Of a stretch of 64,000 nucleotides of DNA, positions 10,486-26,104 are shown piece by piece; the first letter of the stretch is position 1, and each line of letters starts with the position of its first letter. The position numbers and the translations under genes are program-made. The stretch is from Corallococcus sp. RDP092CA (GTDB lineage Bacteria; Myxococcota; Myxococcia; Myxococcales; Myxococcaceae). The DNA lies in NCBI RefSeq assembly GCF_041903675.1, contig NZ_JAYESI010000001.1, positions 160,643 to 224,642 of the forward strand, in the 5' to 3' direction. The notes beneath the pieces are model-generated. The model was not told where the DNA came from, ran no database searches, and was given only the letters and a program-made list of their open reading frames with translations.

Positions 10486-13400
10486 TTGCAGACCGTTCTT
10501 CCTCGCACGCTCATCCTCTGTGTCGCGGTCTTCGCCGCGGCCCCCGTCCACGCGCAGGAGGCCGCGCTGTTGCACGCTGCGCCGCCTCGCGCCGAGGCCC
10601 GGCAGCCCCTCCAGTTGGATGCGACGCTGGTGGATGGCGGCAGGGTGCTGGAGCTCTTCGTCCGCTATCGTGGACCGGGAGAGCCGTACGTCCAGGTCCC
10701 CATGGAGCGGCAGTACGGGGACCTGTACCGCGCGCTGATCCCCGCCGAGCACATGGTGCCCCCCGGCGTGGAGTACTTCGTCGAGGCGGCCATGGTGGAC
10801 GGAGCGCGCACGCCGCTCTTCATGTCCGCGCTCCGGCCCGCGAGGGTGATGGTGGGGACGCAGCCCGCGGAGCCTCCGCCGGGCCGTGCGTCGCCGGGCC
10901 GCAGGGGGGCCCGTGAGCCTCCGAGGTCCGCACCCGAAATCGATGCGTTCGCGCCGCCGTCGGCGGCAGGGGAGGGCAACGACGCGGGAGGCGCATCGGC
11001 TTCGCCCCCGGCCTCAGGCACGGATTCCCGGGCTGCGACCCGGCCGGGAGCCGCTGACTCCCGCGCAGCGAGCACTCCGGATGGCACGGACCCGCGCGCC
11101 TCCACGCATGCGAATGGTCCGGACTCGGCCGAGCCGGGCCGCACGGATGGCACGGGCTCACGCGCCGTGAACCGCGCGGATGCGTCCGACCCGCGCGCCC
11201 CAACCCGCGTGAACGGGACGGACCCGCATGCCTCGAGCCGCACGGATGGCGCGGACCCGCGGGCCCCGCGCCGCGCGGACGCGTCCGACCCGCGCGCCTC
11301 CACCCGCACGGGCGGTCCGGATGCACGGGCGCCCGGCCGTGCGGACACCCAGGGCTCACGGGCTCCGGGCGACTCCGATGACGCCATGGCCGCGCTCAAC
11401 GCGGACCTCCCTCCAGACACCCGCTCCGACTCCCGCGCGTCGCCTTCCTCCCGCTCCACCATGGATGACGACCTGGCGCTCTACAGCGCGGAGGACGTGC
11501 TGGCGGTGACGACCCTCCAGGAGGAGGCCGTGCGCACCGTGCCGGCCATCGGCGCGTCCTTCAACCGCGCGCAGATGATCGCCCTGGGCGCCCGCACCGT
11601 GGCGGACGTGCTGGACGTGGTGCCCGGTGTGTCCGTCAGCCGCGACGTGCAGGGCTTCCACCGCACCGCCATCCGGGGCCTGCGCAACGACGCGGAGGTC
11701 CTCTTCCTCCTCGACGGCCACCGCCTCAACAACTTCTACGACGGCAAGGCGCTGATGAACCTGCCGGTGGAGAACCTGGAGCGCATCGAGGTCATCCGCG
11801 GCCCCGGCTCCGCTGTCTACGGCGCGGGCGCCTTCCAGGGCGTCGTCAACCTCATCACGAACCACGCGGACGGCGTGCGCGGCGCCATCACCACCGGCGG
11901 CGTCCCCCGCGACGATGGCCGCCTCGCGCTCGCCACCGATGGCCACCTGTCCGCCGCGCACACCACCGGCGACCTGCGCCTGTTCGCGGACCTGGACCTG
12001 TGGAGCCAGGAGGGAGGCTCGCTCGTCGTCAGCCACGACGCGCTCGACGACGAGGCCGTGGCCCAGGGGCTGCGCGACGTGGAGCAGCCGGCGGGCAGCA
12101 CCCGCGACGGCCGCTTCCTCCTCAACGCGGGCGGGGGCGTGTCCTACGGCCTGGACAGCGCCGGCCGCGTGGGCGTCACCGCGCGCTACCTCACGGAGAA
12201 GCGGGACGCGCTCGTCGGCCTGTTCGACACCGTGGGCAACGACTCGCGGCTGTCCTGGGACGTGCTCCTCGCGGACCTCACCTGGGAGCGGCCCCTCGCC
12301 GACGGCGGCCAGGTGCGCGCCCGGCTGGGGTTCGATCAGCAGTCCACCGACCGCCTGTTCCAGCTCACCCCCCACGACTTCCGCACCGGCGCCGGCGCGG
12401 AGCGCCTCTTCCCCGACGGCCTCCGCGAGCAGACGCAGGTCACCGTGCGCACCGTGTCGGGCGCCGTGGACGCGGACCTCGCGCTGGCCAAGGAGAACCA
12501 CCTCACGCTGGGCTTCGTCGCCGAGCAGCAGTCCCTGTCCCGCTACGACTACACCACCAACTACACGCTCGACGGCCGCCTGCGCCCCAGCCCCGCCGCC
12601 CCCGAGGGCCTGGTGGACCTCACGCAGGGCGCGGCCGCCCGCCGCCTCAGCCTGGGCCTGTCCGCGCAGGACCAGTGGACCGTGCTCTCCGCGCTCACGC
12701 TCACCTTCGGTCTGCGCCTGGACGCCATCCAGCTACCGGACGCGGACGCGGCTGAGGGCGTGCTCGACACGAGCAAGATGGTGGTGCGCGTCAACCCGCG
12801 CGTGGGCCTGGTCGTCGCCGCGTCGGACGCGCTCGTGCTCAAGGCGCTGTACGGCCGCGCCTTCCGCGCCCCCACGCCCCAGGAACTGGTCGAGCGCATC
12901 CCCGACACCACCTACAACCAGGGCCGCTTCGAGGGAAACCCGCTCCTGCAGCCCACCACCGTGGACACCTTCGAGCTGGGCATGGACCTGGTCCAGGCCG
13001 CGGGCGACACCCGCGTGCGCGTGCGCGCCAACGCCTTCCTCCAGAACTTCGCCTCGCCCATCACCCCGGTGGACACCAGCGGCAACATCGTCCCCCTGCG
13101 CAACCGCGAGCTGGGCGTGCGCGTGTACGGCGTGGAGGCGGAGGCCCGGCTGGAGGCGTCGAAGCGCGCCGCCGCGTGGGTCAACGCCAGCCTGTCGCGC
13201 GCGCAGGACCTGGAGCTGCCGGACCAGTCCCGCCTGCTCACGGACGTGCCCCAGGCGCGCTTCAACGCGGGCGTGTCCATGCCGCTGGGCGACTGGCTGA
13301 ACCTGGACGTGGTGGTGCGCTCCGGCGCCGAGCGCCGCAACAACAACCGCTCCACGCTGGAGCTCATCCGCCGCTACCAGATTCCCGCCTACAGCCTCAT

Positions 13401-13572
13401 CACCGCGCAGCTGCGCACCGAGCCCATCTGGGAGCACTTCGAGGTGACGCTCTTCGCGCAGAACCTCTTCGACCACGACCTGCGCGACGACGTGCCCCGG
13501 CCGGACCGCCTCACCGGCCTGCTGCCGCGCGAGGGCGTGTCCGGCTACCTCACCCTGAGGGCCTTCTACTGA
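10486..13572 (+). CDS. TonB-dependent outer-membrane receptor with long N-terminal extension
   Basis: Signal peptide, then a roughly 140-aa N-terminal domain, an Asp/Pro/Arg-rich repeat linker, a plug domain (TVPAIGASFNRAQ...IEVIRGPGSAVYG) and a beta-barrel ending LTLRAFY. Apparent TTG start. Confidence 0.75.
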   Translation: MQTVLPRTLILCVAVFAAAPVHAQEAALLHAAPPRAEARQPLQLDATLVDGGRVLELFVRYRGPGEPYVQVPMERQYGDLYRALIPAEHMVPPGVEYFVEAAMVDGARTPLFMSALRPARVMVGTQPAEPPPGRASPGRRGAREPPRSAPEIDAFAPPSAAGEGNDAGGASASPPASGTDSRAATRPGAADSRAASTPDGTDPRASTHANGPDSAEPGRTDGTGSRAVNRADASDPRAPTRVNGTDPHASSRTDGADPRAPRRADASDPRASTRTGGPDARAPGRADTQGSRAPGDSDDAMAALNADLPPDTRSDSRASPSSRSTMDDDLALYSAEDVLAVTTLQEEAVRTVPAIGASFNRAQMIALGARTVADVLDVVPGVSVSRDVQGFHRTAIRGLRNDAEVLFLLDGHRLNNFYDGKALMNLPVENLERIEVIRGPGSAVYGAGAFQGVVNLITNHADGVRGAITTGGVPRDDGRLALATDGHLSAAHTTGDLRLFADLDLWSQEGGSLVVSHDALDDEAVAQGLRDVEQPAGSTRDGRFLLNAGGGVSYGLDSAGRVGVTARYLTEKRDALVGLFDTVGNDSRLSWDVLLADLTWERPLADGGQVRARLGFDQQSTDRLFQLTPHDFRTGAGAERLFPDGLREQTQVTVRTVSGAVDADLALAKENHLTLGFVAEQQSLSRYDYTTNYTLDGRLRPSPAAPEGLVDLTQGAAARRLSLGLSAQDQWTVLSALTLTFGLRLDAIQLPDADAAEGVLDTSKMVVRVNPRVGLVVAASDALVLKALYGRAFRAPTPQELVERIPDTTYNQGRFEGNPLLQPTTVDTFELGMDLVQAAGDTRVRVRANAFLQNFASPITPVDTSGNIVPLRNRELGVRVYGVEAEARLEASKRAAAWVNASLSRAQDLELPDQSRLLTDVPQARFNAGVSMPLGDWLNLDVVVRSGAERRNNNRSTLELIRRYQIPAYSLITAQLRTEPIWEHFEVTLFAQNLFDHDLRDDVPRPDRLTGLLPREGVSGYLTLRAFY
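10990..11390 (+). repeat. Degenerate tandem repeats (about 30-33 nt units) encoding (D/S)PRA-rich low-complexity linker inside the TonB receptor gene
   Basis: Repeated gacccgcgcgcc/ggacccgcgggcc-type units. Protein shows roughly 11 iterations of xDPRAxxRxxG. Confidence 0.6.
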
Positions 13573-21891: not shown

Positions 21892-22617
21892 ATGGGACAG
21901 CGACTGGGTGTCAACGTGGATCACGTGGCGACGCTGCGGCAGGCGCGGCGCACCGTGTATCCGGATCCCGTGACGGCCGCGGCGATGGCGGAGCTGGCCG
22001 GCGCCCGGCAGATCACCATCCACCTGCGTGAGGACCGGCGCCACATCCAGGACCGCGACCTGCGCATCCTCCGGGAGACGGTGCAGACGCTCCTGAACCT
22101 GGAGATGGCCGCCACCGCGGAGATGGTGAAGATCGCCTACGAGTACAAGCCGGACGTGGTGACGCTCGTCCCCGAGCGGCGCGAGGAGCTCACCACCGAG
22201 GGCGGCCTGGAGGTGGCCGGCCAGCGCGAGTCCATCGCGAAGATCATCAAGAACCTCAAGGACGGGGAGATCGCCGTCTCGTTGTTCATCGACCCGGACC
22301 TGGACCAGGTGCGCGCGGCGCACAAGGTGAACGCGGACCGGGTGGAGCTGCACACGGGCCGCTACTGCGAGGCGCGCAACGAGAAGGAGCGCGCGCGGGA
22401 GCTGGCGCGCATCGTGGACGCGGCCAAGGCGAGCGCCAAGCTGGGCATGGGCGTGGCCGCCGGCCACGGGCTCAACTACGACAACGTGCAGGACATCGCG
22501 CGCATCCAGGAGATCGACGAGCTGAACATCGGCCACGCCATCGTGGCGCGCGCGGTGCTGGTGGGCTTCGAGCGCGCGGTGCGCGAGATGCTCGAGCTGA
22601 TGCGCGACCCGGGGTAG
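21892..22617 (+). CDS. pdxJ: Pyridoxine 5'-phosphate synthase
   Basis: [16 protein letters not shown]-terminal signature. About 241 aa. Confidence 0.9.
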
Positions 22618-22623
22618 GACCGT

Positions 22624-22998
22624 ATGCCCATCGTCGGCCTGGGGTTGGACCTCTGCTCCATCGAGCGCATCCAGCGCATCCTCGACGGTCCGCGCGCGGA
22701 CGCGTTCCTGAAGCGCGTCTACACGGACGGCGAGCGGGCGTACTGCGCGCCCCGGCACGACGCGGCCAGCGCGTACGCGGCGAGGTTCGCGGCGAAGGAG
22801 GCGCTGGTGAAGGCGATGGGCGTGCCTCCGGGCGTGAAGTGGCGGGACATGGAGGTGGTGCGCGAGGGCGGCCCGCCGCGCTTCGTGCTCTCCGGGGTGG
22901 CCCGCGAGGTGATGGAAGCGCGAGGATGGGAGGCGATGCTCGCGCTCACCCATGATGCCGGCGTGGCCGCGGCCACGGTGGTGCTCCAGACGAAGTAG
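22624..22998 (+). CDS. acpS: Holo-ACP synthase
   Basis: IVGLGLDLCSIERI motif. 124 aa. Directly follows pdxJ. Confidence 0.85.
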   Translation: MPIVGLGLDLCSIERIQRILDGPRADAFLKRVYTDGERAYCAPRHDAASAYAARFAAKEALVKAMGVPPGVKWRDMEVVREGGPPRFVLSGVAREVMEARGWEAMLALTHDAGVAAATVVLQTK

Positions 22999-23012: not shown

Positions 23013-24545
23013 ATGCAGCGCGTGCTCACCGCGAACCAGATGCGAGAGGCCGAGAAGGCCGCCCAGGACCAGCACGGGATGCCGTCCGGGTTGTTGATGG
23101 AGAACGCGGGCCGCGCGCTCGCGGAGGCCGCCCGAGGCGTCGCGGGCCCGGGGGGGCGCTTCACGGTGCTCTGCGGCCCCGGCAACAACGGCGGGGACGG
23201 CCTGGTCGCCGCGCGCTTCCTCCTGGAGGGCGGCGCCCGGGTGGTGGTGTCGCTGGTGGGGGACCCCGGCAAGCTCACCTCGGAGGCGAAGCGCAACCTC
23301 CAGGCGCTGGAGGGCTTCGGTGAGTCGCCGCGCGCCTTCGAGGCGCTGCCGGAGGCGGGCCCGGGGGACGTGGTGGTGGACGCCCTCTTCGGCACGGGCC
23401 TGAAGCGCGCGCCGGAGGGCGCCTTCGCGGACGCCATCGGCACGGTCGCGCGGTGGCGGCGCGCGGGGGCGAAGGTGGTGGCGGCGGACGTGCCGTCGGG
23501 CCTCCAGAGCGACACGGCGGAGCCCTACACGCCGTGCGTGGAGGCGGACGTCACGGTGGCCTTTGGCTTCGTGAAGCCCGCGCACGAGCTGGAGCCTGGC
23601 GCGTCGCTGTGCGGCGAGGTGCGGCGCGTGGACATCGGCCTGGGCGGCGAGTCCTCGCGCGCGGTGTCCGGCGCGGAGTTGTTCCGGGTGGAGGAGAAGG
23701 ACGCGCGGGAGGCGCTGCCCAGGCGCCGCGCGGACTCGCACAAGGGCACCTACGGCCACGTGCTGGTGGTGGCGGGCAGCCCGGGCAAGACGGGCGCCGC
23801 GGCGATGGTGGCCCTGGCCGCGCTGCGCAGCGGGGCGGGGCTCGTCACGGTGGCGACGCGCCCGGAGGCGCTGACGTGGGTGATGGCGCACTCGCCGGAG
23901 ATCATGGGCCTCCCGCTGCCCGGCGAGGGCCCGCTGGGCAAGGGCGACCTGGAGGCCCTCAAGGCCGCGCTGGAGGGCAAGGACGCGCTGGTGATCGGGC
24001 CGGGCATCCCCCGCGGGCCGGAGACGGGCGCGCTGATTGGCGACCTGCTGGCCTCGGTGGAGATGCCCGCGGTGCTGGACGCGGACGCGCTCAACGCCGT
24101 CGCGGAGGACCTCAAGGTGCTGAGCCAGGCGAAGGGGCCCGTGCTGCTCACGCCGCACCCCGGGGAGATGGCGCGGCTGTGGGGCCGGACGACGAAGGAC
24201 GTGCAGGCGCACCGCGTGGGCGTGGCGCTCAACATGGCCACGTCGCTCAACGTGACGGTGGTGCTCAAGGGCTCGCGCACGCTCATCGCGGAGGCGGGCG
24301 GGCGCGTGTTCATCAACCCCACGGGCAACGCGGGCATGGCCACGGGCGGCACGGGCGACGTGCTGTCGGGCGTGTGCGGCGCGCTGCTCGCGCAGGGGAT
24401 CCCGCTGCCCAAGGCCGCGTGGACGGCCGTGTACGCCCACGGGCTCGCGGGCGACCTGATGGCCCGGCAGCGCGGCTTGATGGGCCTCATCGCCACGGAC
24501 CTGTTGAAGGGCCTGGGCCACGTCTGGGTGCGGTGGGAGCGATGA
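23013..24545 (+). CDS. nnr: Bifunctional NAD(P)H-hydrate repair enzyme (epimerase/dehydratase)
   Basis: YjeF-N (LCGPGNNGGDG) and YjeF-C (GTGDVLSG) motifs. Confidence 0.85.
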   Translation: MQRVLTANQMREAEKAAQDQHGMPSGLLMENAGRALAEAARGVAGPGGRFTVLCGPGNNGGDGLVAARFLLEGGARVVVSLVGDPGKLTSEAKRNLQALEGFGESPRAFEALPEAGPGDVVVDALFGTGLKRAPEGAFADAIGTVARWRRAGAKVVAADVPSGLQSDTAEPYTPCVEADVTVAFGFVKPAHELEPGASLCGEVRRVDIGLGGESSRAVSGAELFRVEEKDAREALPRRRADSHKGTYGHVLVVAGSPGKTGAAAMVALAALRSGAGLVTVATRPEALTWVMAHSPEIMGLPLPGEGPLGKGDLEALKAALEGKDALVIGPGIPRGPETGALIGDLLASVEMPAVLDADALNAVAEDLKVLSQAKGPVLLTPHPGEMARLWGRTTKDVQAHRVGVALNMATSLNVTVVLKGSRTLIAEAGGRVFINPTGNAGMATGGTGDVLSGVCGALLAQGIPLPKAAWTAVYAHGLAGDLMARQRGLMGLIATDLLKGLGHVWVRWER

Positions 24546-24760
24546 GCGGCGCGTCGGACGGGCCGCGCGCGCGGACGCCGTGGCGCGTGTCAGCGCGTCG
24601 GGCGGGCCGTGCGGGTGGGCCGCGGCCTCGTCGCGGCGCGGAGGTCGCGATGAGCGGCGCGGCGGGCGCGCGGACGCCGTGGCGCGTGTCGTCGCGGCGC
24701 GCGGTCGTGCGGGTGGGCCGCGGCCTCGTCGCGGCGCGGAGGTCGCGATGAGCGGCGCGG
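24541..24760 (+). repeat. Tandem direct repeat (about 100-108 bp, 2 full units plus a partial third) duplicating the nnr-stop/tsaE-start junction
   Basis: gatgagcggcgcg...ggcctcgtcgcggcgcggaggtcgc recurs starting at 24541, 24649 and 24747. Confidence 0.7.
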
Positions 24761-25233
24761 CGCAGCCCACGCGCTCCTGGCGGCTCGTGTCTCCGTCTCC
24801 GGAGGAGACGCACCGGCTGGGCGTGAAGCTGGGGGCGCTGCTCCAGCCCGGGGACTTCGTGGGGCTGATTGGCGACCTGGGCGCGGGCAAGACGCACCTG
24901 GCGCGCGGCGTGGCGGAAGGGGCGGGCGTCGCGCGCTCCGAGGTGGCCAGCCCCACCTTCGCCATCGTGTATCCGTACGCGGGCCGCATCCCGCTGTACC
25001 ACGCGGACCTGTACCGCCTGACGGACTACGACGAGCTGTACGCCACCGGGTTCCTGGACCTGGTGGGCGGCGACCACGCGATGCTCGTGGAGTGGCTGGA
25101 CCGCATCCCCCAGGCCGCGCCGCGCGACTTCCTGCGCGTCACGCTCCGCCACGAGGGCGAGGAGGCGCGGAGCCTCGACGTGGAGGCCTTCGGCGCGCGG
25201 CCCGCGGCGCTGCTCGACGCGTGGCTGGGGTGA
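24748..25233 (+). CDS. tsaE: tRNA t6A37 biosynthesis ATPase TsaE
   Basis: GDLGAGKT P-loop. Small size. Conserved position after nnr. Likely start is the ATG of the third repeat unit. Confidence 0.8.
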   Translation: MSGAAQPTRSWRLVSPSPEETHRLGVKLGALLQPGDFVGLIGDLGAGKTHLARGVAEGAGVARSEVASPTFAIVYPYAGRIPLYHADLYRLTDYDELYATGFLDLVGGDHAMLVEWLDRIPQAAPRDFLRVTLRHEGEEARSLDVEAFGARPAALLDAWLG

Positions 25234-25234
25234 G

Positions 25235-26104
25235 TCAGGCCATGGAGTGCTGAGCCGCGGGCCGCGGATTCAGCACGCCGTCCGCCAGCGTCTGCACCTT
25301 CCAGCGGTGGAACACGAGCCGCGCGTCCACGCCCACCACGTCCTCTTCATCCACGGGCACCCAGTGCGGCCCGCCGCACAGCGACTCGCTGGCGACGAGG
25401 AACTGCTGGAGCGGCACGCGCGTGTTCTGCCCGCGCAGCACCTCCGGGCAGCCGCTGAGGCCGGAGGAGATGAAGAGGGTGCGGTTGCGGCGCGTGGCCA
25501 CCATCGCCTCGCCATCCGTGACGAGGAAGTTCATCGCGGAGCGCTCCTTCGGCTCGCGACTTCCCGGCACGTCCGTCATCGCGGACACCAGCGTCATCGT
25601 CTCCGCGAGCGCCTGCGCCATCGCCTCCACGCTCACCGTGCCGTCGAGCGGCCCGCGCGCCGACAGCCGCGACAGGAACAGGTAGAAGCAGCGCTCGCTG
25701 TCCGTGGTGCCCTTGATGTTCACCCGCAGCTCTGGGTGGATGAGCGCCTCCACGGCGGCCTTGTGCTTCGCGAACTCGCGCAGCGTGCCGTTGTGGACGA
25801 AGGACCAGCGGCCGAAGTGGAACGGGTGCGAGTTGCGCAGCTCCACCGCGCCCACGCTGGCCAGGCGGATGTGCGCCACGACCGTGCGCGCGGAGACCTG
25901 GCTCGACACGCGCTCGAAGTCGGGGTCGCTGTGCGCGGGCCCTACGCCGTGCGCGACGAGCGGCGAGGAATCCACCCCGTAGGTGGCGATGCCCCAGCCG
26001 TCCTTGTGCTCACGCGACTGGATGAGGAGGGAATTCCTCTCCGTGACAAGGGCGGTGTGGACAGCGGCGGGAACGGCACTCCTGAAACCAAATAATCGGC
26101 ACAT
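25235..26104 (-). CDS. Class II (Ntn) glutamine amidotransferase, YafJ-type
   Basis: MCRLFG N-terminal Cys nucleophile, HIRLAS and NSHPF motifs. Confidence 0.7.
   Translation of the reverse strand: MCRLFGFRSAVPAAVHTALVTERNSLLIQSREHKDGWGIATYGVDSSPLVAHGVGPAHSDPDFERVSSQVSARTVVAHIRLASVGAVELRNSHPFHFGRWSFVHNGTLREFAKHKAAVEALIHPELRVNIKGTTDSERCFYLFLSRLSARGPLDGTVSVEAMAQALAETMTLVSAMTDVPGSREPKERSAMNFLVTDGEAMVATRRNRTLFISSGLSGCPEVLRGQNTRVPLQQFLVASESLCGGPHWVPVDEEDVVGVDARLVFHRWKVQTLADGVLNPRPAAQHSMA

Follow-up and report, generated by a model that had tools for sequence, protein, structure and literature searches.

Known coupled gene pairs and tandem duplications

In gene pairs that are coupled through an ATGA overlap (Huber et al. 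2019, 2023; PMC6728339, PMC10666635), termination-reinitiation is nearly abolished by an untranslated spacing of about 20 nt (PMC10666635). An RNA-unfolding model of coupling has also been described (PMC12548453), as for MS2 coat-lysis and E. coli rpmI-rplT, in which the downstream start lies in a stable stem that can be opened by the ribosome finishing the upstream gene. The nnr/tsaE locus analyzed here resembles the first type in that its ancestral junction is a textbook ATGA overlap and in that the open reading frame (ORF) now found between the two genes is again bounded by ATGA overlaps. However, if coupling persists at this locus it crosses a 69-codon ORF and involves two reinitiation events, and no description of coupling through an intervening ORF with two reinitiations was found in the literature searched. 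The likeness to the second type is that the tsaE start may also lie in a stem openable by an arriving ribosome, but here the structure is a predicted one, strong in a single lineage and without covariation support.

Head-to-tail copies, exact boundary repeats of 15-17 nt, a copy number that varies among relatives and precise losses that restore the original arrangement are features shared with bacterial VNTR-like tandem duplications. In contrast to such loci, the unit is the boundary of two overlapping genes and not anonymous DNA, so that start codon, stop codon and ribosome-binding region are formed anew in every copy; also, only 0-2 copies are seen, and these are old enough to have diverged. 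The mutation is a tandem duplication of the ordinary sort and does not introduce a new type of system. It is a tidy natural example of overlapping genes coming apart, clean and datable, with three allelic states in close relatives. The repeat, the chimeric origin of its units, their distribution, their recovery from independent read sets and the lack of a protein-coding or known-RNA signature are all established.

Gene context and architecture of the repeat array

In the window, that is, the whole 64-kb stretch of DNA of a Corallococcus soil bacterium that was analyzed, the array separates two housekeeping genes on the forward strand (Table 1). The upstream gene was assigned to nnr because its product matches PF03853 YjeF_N (6.7e-44) and PF01256 Carb_kinase (5.4e-58) and scores above the cut-offs of TIGR00196 and TIGR00197. 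The downstream gene was assigned to tsaE because its product matches PF02367 (2.5e-34) and passes TIGR00150 (85.5 bits against a cut-off of 60.1); this product is identical to NCBI WP_374259806.1, also of 161 aa. The Pfam and TIGR matches bear out the names that an earlier note on this DNA had given to both genes. Its description of them as two essential genes is loose as a matter of general knowledge, tsaE (yjeE) being essential in E. coli and nnr (yjeF), to our knowledge, not being known as essential. Eight Corallococcus loci extend to the upstream side, and all of them share the gene order pdxJ-acpS-nnr-tsaE; the nnr (YjeF)/tsaE (YjeE) pair thus combines domains above curated cut-offs with a conserved adjacency.

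Table 1. Features of the nnr/tsaE locus in the window (positions are those of the whole stretch)
Feature	Position	Strand	Remarks
nnr, bifunctional NAD(P)H-hydrate epimerase/dehydratase, 510 aa	23013-24545	+	stop TGA 24543-24545
A0, true last 45 nt of nnr	24497-24541	+	source sequence of the A' copies (A1, A2)
J1, motif GCGATGAGCGGCGCG	24539-24553	+	nnr stop overlaps ATG 24542 (ATGA)
Spacer ORF, 69 codons, MSGASDGPRARTPWRV...AARRSR*, pI 12, 18 Arg	24542-24751	+	ATGA overlap at both ends
Repeat unit 1, 108 nt	24542-24649	+	B1 24542-24604 (tsaE-5'-derived) and A1 24605-24649 (nnr-3'-derived)
Predicted hairpin around J2 ATG, matching that at the tsaE start	24607-24673	+	MFE -50.8 kcal/mol, z -3.29
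GGAGG Shine-Dalgarno-like motif	24640-24644	+	5 nt upstream of J2 ATG; anti-Shine-Dalgarno duplex -10.7 kcal/mol, contiguous
Repeat unit 2, 98 nt	24650-24747	+	J2 and B2 24650-24702, then A2 24703-24747
Predicted hairpin enclosing the tsaE start	24706-24771	+	inner 12-bp stem 24724-24735 / 24742-24754
GGAGG Shine-Dalgarno-like motif	24738-24742	+	5 nt upstream of tsaE ATG
tsaE, t6A ATPase subunit, 161 aa	24748-25233	+	starts at J3

Three copies of the junction 15-mer GCGATGAGCGGCGCG start at 24539, 24647 and 24745 (J1, J2 and J3), with spacings of 108 and 98 nt; 0.14 occurrences were expected and none of 100 shuffles reached three. The 25-mer GGAGGTCGCGATGAGCGGCGCGGCG was observed twice, with 0.00 occurrences expected. 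Tandem Repeats Finder reported a period-98 array at 24567-24762 (2.0 copies, 93% matches, score 350) as the top tandem repeat of the window, and a repeat search recovered a 60-nt family with copies at 24497, 24605 and 24703, spaced by the same 108 and 98 nt. The second and third copies of this family are 98% identical, and the first, which is the true 3' end of nnr, is 73% identical. Units 1 and 2 are 94% identical and differ by 6 substitutions, one 9-nt indel and one 1-nt indel; the halves of the units do not differ significantly in how far they have diverged (Fisher p 0.21). The duplicated junction has resulted in a 206-base spacer of 86% GC between nnr and tsaE.

The copies lie head to tail, at high identity and beyond chance expectation, as tandem direct repeats do. 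A dispersed REP- or MITE-like element would have further copies, but within the window no array copy was found outside 24497-24762, and the repeat search reported no inverted repeat of the kind that would form the termini of such elements. The earlier reading of the array as a tandemly duplicated stop-start junction of nnr and tsaE agrees with the three junction copies and the period-98 array; duplications of this type are made by slippage or unequal exchange. The note's count, two full units followed by the beginning of a third from which tsaE starts, is also correct. As to where the repeat starts, the junction is indeed duplicated, but the segment also reaches about 45 nt further upstream, into nnr (A0).

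Recovery of the array from independent sequencing runs

The region is GC-rich (86%) and repetitive, and both short-read and draft assemblies break at it, which could point to an assembly artefact, i.e. a collapsed or expanded repeat in a genome that in reality has one junction. This outcome, which the earlier note had named as its own refutation, fails against the contigs of other runs, and its probability is next to negligible. Between unit 1 and unit 2 there are 6 substitutions and two indels, differences that would be unexpected for an artefactual copy, and nnr-side Logan contigs of two runs (L081/L082) carry unit 1 base-for-base, ending at J2. Also, tsaE-side contigs of three runs (SRR10595380/83/94) begin with a 31-mer whose last base is the first at which the passage from J3 into tsaE differs from that of J2 into unit 2, and the short-read contigs from other runs stop exactly at this forced k=31 graph branch. 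Since such a branch point exists only if a copied nnr end and its junction (A'-J) continue into two sequences, at least two A'-J copies must be present. A complete genome (L084, CP114039.1) and a further draft (L096, GCA_046520365.1) also contain homologous spacers. In practical terms, this is a locus that breaks short-read assemblies of these genomes.

Chimeric origin of the repeat units

In each unit the tsaE start (the ATG and about 50 nt) runs directly into a diverged copy of the final 45 nt of nnr. The units open with the exact tsaE start ATGAGCGGCGCGG, followed by a tsaE-like ...TPWRVS... stretch. Such chimeras of tsaE 5' and nnr 3' sequence are expected if the ancestral 4-nt ATGA overlap lay inside the segment that was duplicated in tandem. 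In anchored, ungapped comparisons the identity between A0 and A1/A2 is 67%, and that between the A' copies and the nnr end of a Corallococcus locus without spacer (L083) is 73-76%, against a background mean of 33%; about 3e-5 of all 45-mers of the window score as well. Gapped local alignment of the units with the ancestral gene ends under strict scoring gave modest z-scores only, and it is the anchored ungapped test that is convincing for a chimeric origin. In the pair measured, the A' copies of the window and of L084 are 91% alike, and A' copies are only 64-69% alike to their own nnr end. The units derive, then, from the unique sequence that flanks them.

Gene conversion from the repeats, which have TGG at the matching place, was considered as the source of Trp11 in the TsaE of the window and was rejected, a single C>T being simpler.

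Distribution among relatives and order of events

An Nnr protein search of genome contigs returned, among the matches listed, nearly all distant phyla, the useful one being an Archangium locus (L001). A plain ATGA overlap with no spacer is found in this locus and in six Corallococcus loci (L083, L085-L088, L095). The context of J1 is that of the tsaE start in these six Corallococcus loci, J1 being the ancestral tsaE start site, which is now the start of the spacer ORF. A homologous spacer is complete in L084, where it comprises 161 nt and a 54-codon ORF from junction to junction, and is at least partially present in L096, where its last 68 nt are seen. The comparison of orthologous junctions, which the earlier note had proposed, thus reveals a repeat copy number that varies among relatives, from 0 in the seven loci with a plain overlap through one spacer in L084 to 2 units in the window.

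In a tree of ten sequences built on 2.4 kb of flank, where interspecies recombination could mimic repeated loss, L083 and L084 are sisters with 100% bootstrap and only L084 has the spacer; L095 and L096 are paired at only 56% support, with the spacer present in L096 and absent from L095. Because presence and absence alternate between sister genomes, the spacer seems to be readily gained and lost, and its precise loss in two sister genomes suggests that it is dispensable. Metagenome DNA searches for the derived junction yielded a single match (L097) and no true homologue. This match, an unrelated gene pair ending in ...MVAARRNA* with an ATGA overlap, was discarded as a chance match.

Taken from the sequence comparisons, a lineage-specific, two-step tandem duplication of a segment spanning the ancestral 4-nt nnr/tsaE ATGA overlap is very probably the origin of the array. 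A duplication that crosses the boundary would keep both genes intact and leave a chimera of tsaE 5' and nnr 3' sequence between them. In the first step, a single spacer would have formed before the split of three Corallococcus lineages, and its copy of the nnr end, freed from coding constraint, would have diverged by about 25-35% and gained a GGAGG 5 nt upstream of the tsaE ATG. In the second step, presumably in the window lineage only, the 98-nt version would have been duplicated again, the copies having since diverged by 6% and two indels. The junction repeats of 15-17 nt permit precise loss, so that sister genomes come to differ in having 0, 1 or 2 units. The locus shows in this way how a 4-nt overlap can be duplicated leaving both genes intact. 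The earlier suggestion of a recent replication-slippage duplication is retained as regards the slippage type of the event, but not as regards a single recent event, given that the first duplication is common to two other lineages and diverged, and that the second, specific to the window, already has copies that far apart.

The occurrence of 0, 1 or 2 copies across close relatives, alternating between sisters, could also reflect a copy-number rheostat or contingency locus, in which the gain and loss of units would tune the TsaE:Nnr dosage and be kept by selection, every extra unit adding a predicted hairpin and a reinitiation step. The window units are, however, 6% diverged, so that turnover must be slow on the strain scale, and in a strain 99.6% identical to the window unit 1 is unchanged and two or more A'-J copies are indicated. 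Selection for a variable copy number is on these grounds very unlikely.

Coding potential of the spacer ORF

The spacer ORF overlaps both of its neighbors co-directionally, through ATGA at 24542-24545 (nnr/ORF69) and at 24748-24751 (ORF69/tsaE), and the locus thus shows a new ORF created with reinitiation sites at both ends. The ORF is open, its start site is a good one inherited from tsaE, it has these overlaps, and its tail, ...VGxGxVAARRxx*, is recognisable in three lineages, all of which would be in line with a functional, newly born Arg-rich micropeptide. In contrast, a search of 5.8 billion proteins returned no homologue of the 69-aa product at E<=1, and the product matches no Pfam or NCBIfam family. 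Its GC content by codon position is nearly flat (0.79/0.83/0.89), against 0.75/0.52/0.98 in nnr and about 0.75/0.5/0.97 in the flanking genes. The N-terminal two thirds are unalignable between lineages, all five of the five codon differences in the tail shared by L084 and L096 are non-synonymous, and the ORF is wholly absent from sister genomes. The likeness of the tail is explained by its descent from the nnr C-terminus together with the constraint of the tsaE ribosome-binding site.

The spacer ORF accordingly lacks the homology, the codon-position composition and the purifying selection of a conserved small protein. A micropeptide with a function of its own is very unlikely indeed, and the Arg/Ala-rich peptide that the earlier note had offered as a possible product finds no backing in homologues, family matches, codon composition or the changes between lineages. 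Judging from its sequence, the ORF does not encode a conserved protein; its translation is probably a relay or a by-product, and it should not be annotated as a gene.

Conservation of the reading frame was considered as evidence of selection and rejected: all three frames are nearly stop-free at 86% GC, and for this reason an ORF running from junction to junction is a weak sign of selection. Also, a unit of nearly any length would either form a relay or extend tsaE in frame at the N-terminus.

Initiation signals, predicted structures and translation of tsaE

The GGAGG that precedes tsaE originated within the released nnr 3' copy, a case of a copied gene end, without coding constraint, turning into a better ribosome-binding site: the duplex with the anti-Shine-Dalgarno sequence is contiguous and reaches -10.7 kcal/mol, against -7.9 for the interrupted duplex of the ancestral context. 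The motif is found at the same spacing in L084 and L096, and in L096 the 5 nt between motif and ATG differ.

The hairpin predicted at the tsaE start places the AUG in the stem and GGAG in the loop. Its MFE is -51.3 kcal/mol (z -4.44), a stability attained by none of 200 shuffles, and none of 2000 simulations in which the ancestral sequence diverged at random reached it. The fold of the whole 246-nt spacer is not significant (z -1.67), and the folds that do stand out are confined to the 70-nt segments around J2 and J3. The hairpin is strong in the window lineage only, being weak in L084 (z -1.2) and absent in L096 (z +0.3), where changes disrupt 3 of the 12 inner pairs and no compensatory change restores them; because of this confinement, a conserved structure has no covariation support. 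The spacer region gave no Rfam match at E<=1 and contains no promoter-like or terminator-like site.

The ATGA overlaps at both ends of the ORF, the GGAGG for tsaE and the burial of its AUG in the predicted hairpin make it plausible that the spacer acts as a translational relay, in which ribosomes leaving nnr reinitiate at J1, cross the spacer ORF and hand over to tsaE. This model, to which we give a little less than even weight, would run as follows. Ribosomes terminating on nnr would reinitiate at the unchanged ancestral start J1, read the 69-codon ORF and stop at the TGA that overlaps the tsaE ATG; their arrival would melt the hairpin hiding this ATG and permit the handover, so that tsaE would stay coupled to nnr, and the Arg-rich peptide itself would be a by-product. 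The idea of a coupling spacer, also raised in the earlier note, is compatible with the anatomy of the locus as read from the sequence. If the relay exists, the relatives would provide a natural series, from the overlap through one relay ORF to a longer one, for the effects of distance and structure on coupling.

The spacer may instead be an untranslated, neutral duplication scar, with tsaE initiated independently from the new GGAGG and the coupling lost. In favor of a scar, each of the three lineages with a spacer keeps the canonical Shine-Dalgarno motif, the composition of the spacer is not that of coding DNA, and its loss in sister genomes is the behavior of a dispensable sequence. J1, however, retains every cis feature of the ancestral tsaE start, namely the upstream nnr end and the first 12-13 nt, and there is therefore no reason for reinitiation at this site to cease; also, the tsaE AUG of the window lies in a predicted hairpin of -51 kcal/mol, which should hinder unaided initiation. 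We consider a scar of this kind somewhat unlikely.

Beyond simple relay, the duplication might have been co-opted as relay and attenuator, the spacer ORF carrying ribosomes to a hairpin-locked tsaE and the number of units setting the TsaE:Nnr ratio, which seems to us quite unlikely. If such co-option were true, the locus would represent a natural, evolvable coupling element derived from the duplication of an ATGA overlap, and a documented route for overlapping genes to part and for a new ORF to be born.

The correction of quasi-palindromes by template switching is a known mutational mechanism, and the derived copy of the nnr end shows a likeness to its products in that the inner stem has been perfected, from 7 of 12 pairs in the ancestral nnr end to 12 of 12. 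The difference is that selection for the hairpin would yield the same pattern, the two being indistinguishable in these data. Read from the sequences, six of the 11 substitutions hit the five mismatched inner-stem pairs.

Structure of the duplicated nnr/tsaE junction

The earlier note proposed that the junction between nnr and tsaE is tandemly duplicated, and this first reading proved largely correct, its location included. Tandem Repeats Finder reports a period-98 array at 24567-24762 (2.0 copies, 93% matches, score 350), by a wide margin the strongest tandem repeat of the window; the junction 15-mer GCGATGAGCGGCGCG occurs three times (24539, 24647 and 24745; chance expectation 0.14), a 25-mer around the junction occurs twice (0.00 expected), and two units can be delimited, with six substitutions, a 9-nt indel and a 1-nt indel between them. 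The two genes are separated by 202 nt with 86% G+C (window, 71.6%), and no further copies were found elsewhere in the window.

Features of the nnr-tsaE region (window coordinates)
Feature	Position	Strand	Remarks
pdxJ	21892-22617	+	
acpS	22624-22998	+	
nnr	23013-24545	+	YjeF_N and Carb_kinase domains; TIGR00196/00197 above cut-off
Repeat unit 1	24542-24649	+	108 nt
Spacer ORF	24542-24751	+	69 codons; ATG overlaps nnr stop, TGA overlaps tsaE ATG
Repeat unit 2	24650-24747	+	98 nt
tsaE	24748-25233	+	PF02367; TIGR00150 above cut-off

Each unit begins with the exact tsaE start (ATGAGCGGCGCGG) and continues in a stretch resembling that gene (...RTPWRVS... in the units, ...TRSWRLVS... in TsaE). Its 3' end consists of 45 nt (A') that align without gaps to the last 45 nt of nnr (A0), leaving the register to the ATGA unchanged. 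A' and A0 are 67-76% identical (background mean, 33%); of the window's 45-mers, about 3 in 100,000 match equally well, all of them A0 or A' sites. Because the unit ends match the tsaE start and the nnr end, the order can be written nnr...A0 / J1-B1-A1 / J2-B2-A2 / J3-tsaE, J being the junction copies, B the parts derived from the tsaE 5' end and A1 and A2 the two A' copies. This layout is the expected outcome of a tandem duplication across the gene boundary, with a tsaE-5'/nnr-3' chimera placed between two intact genes.

The metagenome collection yielded no related copy; its sole match (2326-2353 of the locus on contig Ga0308175_100083519) lies at the ATGA overlap of an unrelated gene pair, the first gene ending in ...MVAARRNA*. 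It was rejected as a related junction, being a chance match to the derived pattern GTCGCGGCGCGGAGGnnnnnATGAGCGG, and shows that GC-rich junction strings of this kind arise repeatedly and independently.

Support from independent read sets

The chance that the repeat is an assembly artefact, with reads showing one copy, as the earlier note had allowed, appears negligible. The two units have diverged, unlike an assembly duplication, and Logan short-read contigs from two other runs encode an Nnr protein identical to that of the window; both contigs reproduce unit 1 base for base and end at J2. Contigs carrying tsaE, from three runs, all start 15 nt upstream of its ATG (window about 24733), and in each the opening 31-mer reaches just as far as the base at which "J3 then tsaE" first departs from "J2 followed by unit 2". 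Branching of a k=31 graph at this point requires two different sequences after A'-J, so these read sets hold at least two copies. Over 2.4 kb the Logan strain matches the window at 99.6% identity, yet it is a different strain, with one synonymous difference in nnr and Arg for Trp at TsaE residue 11.

On the nnr side, contigs stop at about window position 24657, a place consistent with a k=31 boundary provided that copies 1 and 2 of that strain last differ at 24627; the equivalent position also varies in L096 (GCA_046520365.1). Short-read or draft assemblies of several strains break within the repeat, that of L096 starting at about window position 24680.

History of the spacer in related genomes

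Comparison with orthologous junctions, as the earlier note advised, revealed that unit number differs among close relatives. A plain 4-nt ATGA overlap joins nnr and tsaE in six Corallococcus loci (L083, L085, L086, L087, L088 and L095) and in an Archangium MAG (L001), and is therefore the ancestral state. In the complete genome CP114039.1 (L084) two junctions lie 161 nt apart, with 157 nt from nnr stop to tsaE start, and its A' is 91% identical to that of the window but only 67% to its own nnr end. The L096 contig begins 68 nt upstream of tsaE, all of it A'-type sequence. A' copies of different lineages are far closer to one another than any is to the nnr end of its own genome. The first duplication therefore probably happened once, before the spacer-bearing lineages split; the window lineage then duplicated a 98-nt version again.

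A neighbour-joining tree of the 2.4 kb downstream of the junction pairs the window with the Logan strain and L084 with L083 (both 100% bootstrap), and L096 with L095 (only 56%). In each of the latter two pairs one member has the spacer and the other lacks it. The simplest reading is a single gain and, later, two or more precise losses by way of the 15-17-nt junction repeats, although exchange between species could yield the same pattern. That these differences represent a selected copy-number switch is very unlikely.

Coding capacity of the spacer

A functional micropeptide encoded by the spacer ORF is scarcely credible. A search of 5.8 billion proteins gave no homologue of the ORF at E<=1, and Pfam and NCBIfam gave no match; the G+C of the ORF by codon position is 0.79/0.83/0.89, and the 0.75/0.5/0.97 signature of the neighbouring genes is absent in every spacer frame. 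As all three frames are nearly free of stops, the open frame itself carries little meaning. The product would have a pI of 12, with 18 Arg among 69 residues. The counterpart in L084, of 54 codons, has only the nnr-derived tail in common with it; within this tail L084 and L096 differ at five codons, each time non-synonymously. The spacer has no Rfam match, and the region scanned contains no promoter-like or terminator-like sites.

Translation start of tsaE and its possible coupling to nnr

In the ancestral overlap the bases preceding the tsaE ATG double as nnr codons (GGUGGGAGCG-AUG), and the best canonical anti-Shine-Dalgarno pairing is interrupted (-7.9 kcal/mol). The derived copy reads GGAGG-5 nt-AUG, with a contiguous duplex (-10.7 kcal/mol); all three spacer-bearing lineages conserve GGAGG at this distance, while the five bases between differ in L096. 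The spacer may be untranslated, tsaE now depending on its own GGAGG, an alternative that we consider rather unlikely, though it is the main rival of the coupling reading given below.

In the window lineage the 70 nt around J3 are predicted to form a hairpin of -51.3 kcal/mol (z = -4.4), and those around J2 one of -50.8 kcal/mol (z = -3.3), with 0/200 shuffles equally stable; the AUG lies in the stem and GGAG in the loop. Neither 2000 simulations of random divergence starting from the ancestral sequence nor 2000 shuffles yielded a single case of such stability. Counted directly from the sequences, inner stem pairs rise from 7/12 in the ancestral to 12/12 in the derived form, a gain that could be explained by selection or by template switching that corrects a quasi-palindrome. 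As L084 has only a weak form (z -1.2) and L096 none (z +0.3), three pairs being lost there without compensating changes, the hairpin is not a conserved element.

J1 retains every feature that the tsaE start had in the ancestral overlap, and ribosomes that finish nnr should therefore continue to reinitiate at it. In reporters, about 20 nt of untranslated distance nearly abolishes termination-reinitiation (PMC10666635), and a second coupling route is the unfolding of structure covering the downstream start (PMC12548453). With ATGA overlaps at both ends, and extending through the hairpin, the spacer ORF would keep coupling by both routes. That it preserves nnr-tsaE coupling through reinitiation and hairpin unfolding is our preferred but tentative reading, to which we give slightly less than even chances.

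Judged feature by feature, the mutation is an ordinary member of the class of tandem duplications between short repeats, and the junctions are ATGA overlaps, likewise a common class; the papers retrieved in a shallow literature search did not describe a relay ORF formed by a duplicated overlap. The significance is modest: the locus is a well-resolved case in which duplication of a junction has pulled overlapping genes apart and created an ORF; it differs among close relatives and has a candidate function only.

Additional observations on neighbouring genes

TsaE of the window (identical to WP_374259806.1) is 94% identical to Corallococcus proteins. Its residue 11 is Trp (TGG, 24778-24780), where every relative examined, including the strain 99.6% identical over the flank, has Arg (CGG); both spacer units carry TGG at the homologous place (...CCGTGGCGC...). 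The Trp could stem from a single C>T change or from a very short conversion from the repeat.

Downstream, tsaE lies tail to tail with a convergent class-II glutamine amidotransferase-like gene (GATase_4, 25235-26104), a single base separating the stop codons (25231-25237); no terminator-like structure was detected in 24200-25400. This ORF is intact in the window and the other relatives (285-291 aa), and its orthologue in CP183924.1 (L083, 2988-3800) is called as two pieces of 206 and 60 aa, which may reflect a frameshift or pseudogene. At 11161-11346, an imperfect 33/66-nt tandem repeat (Tandem Repeats Finder scores 127-159) encodes repeats of about 11 residues (R-x-D-x-S-D-P-R-A-x-x) in the N-terminal, low-complexity linker of a TonB-dependent receptor of 1028 aa (10486-13572) with Plug and beta-barrel domains.
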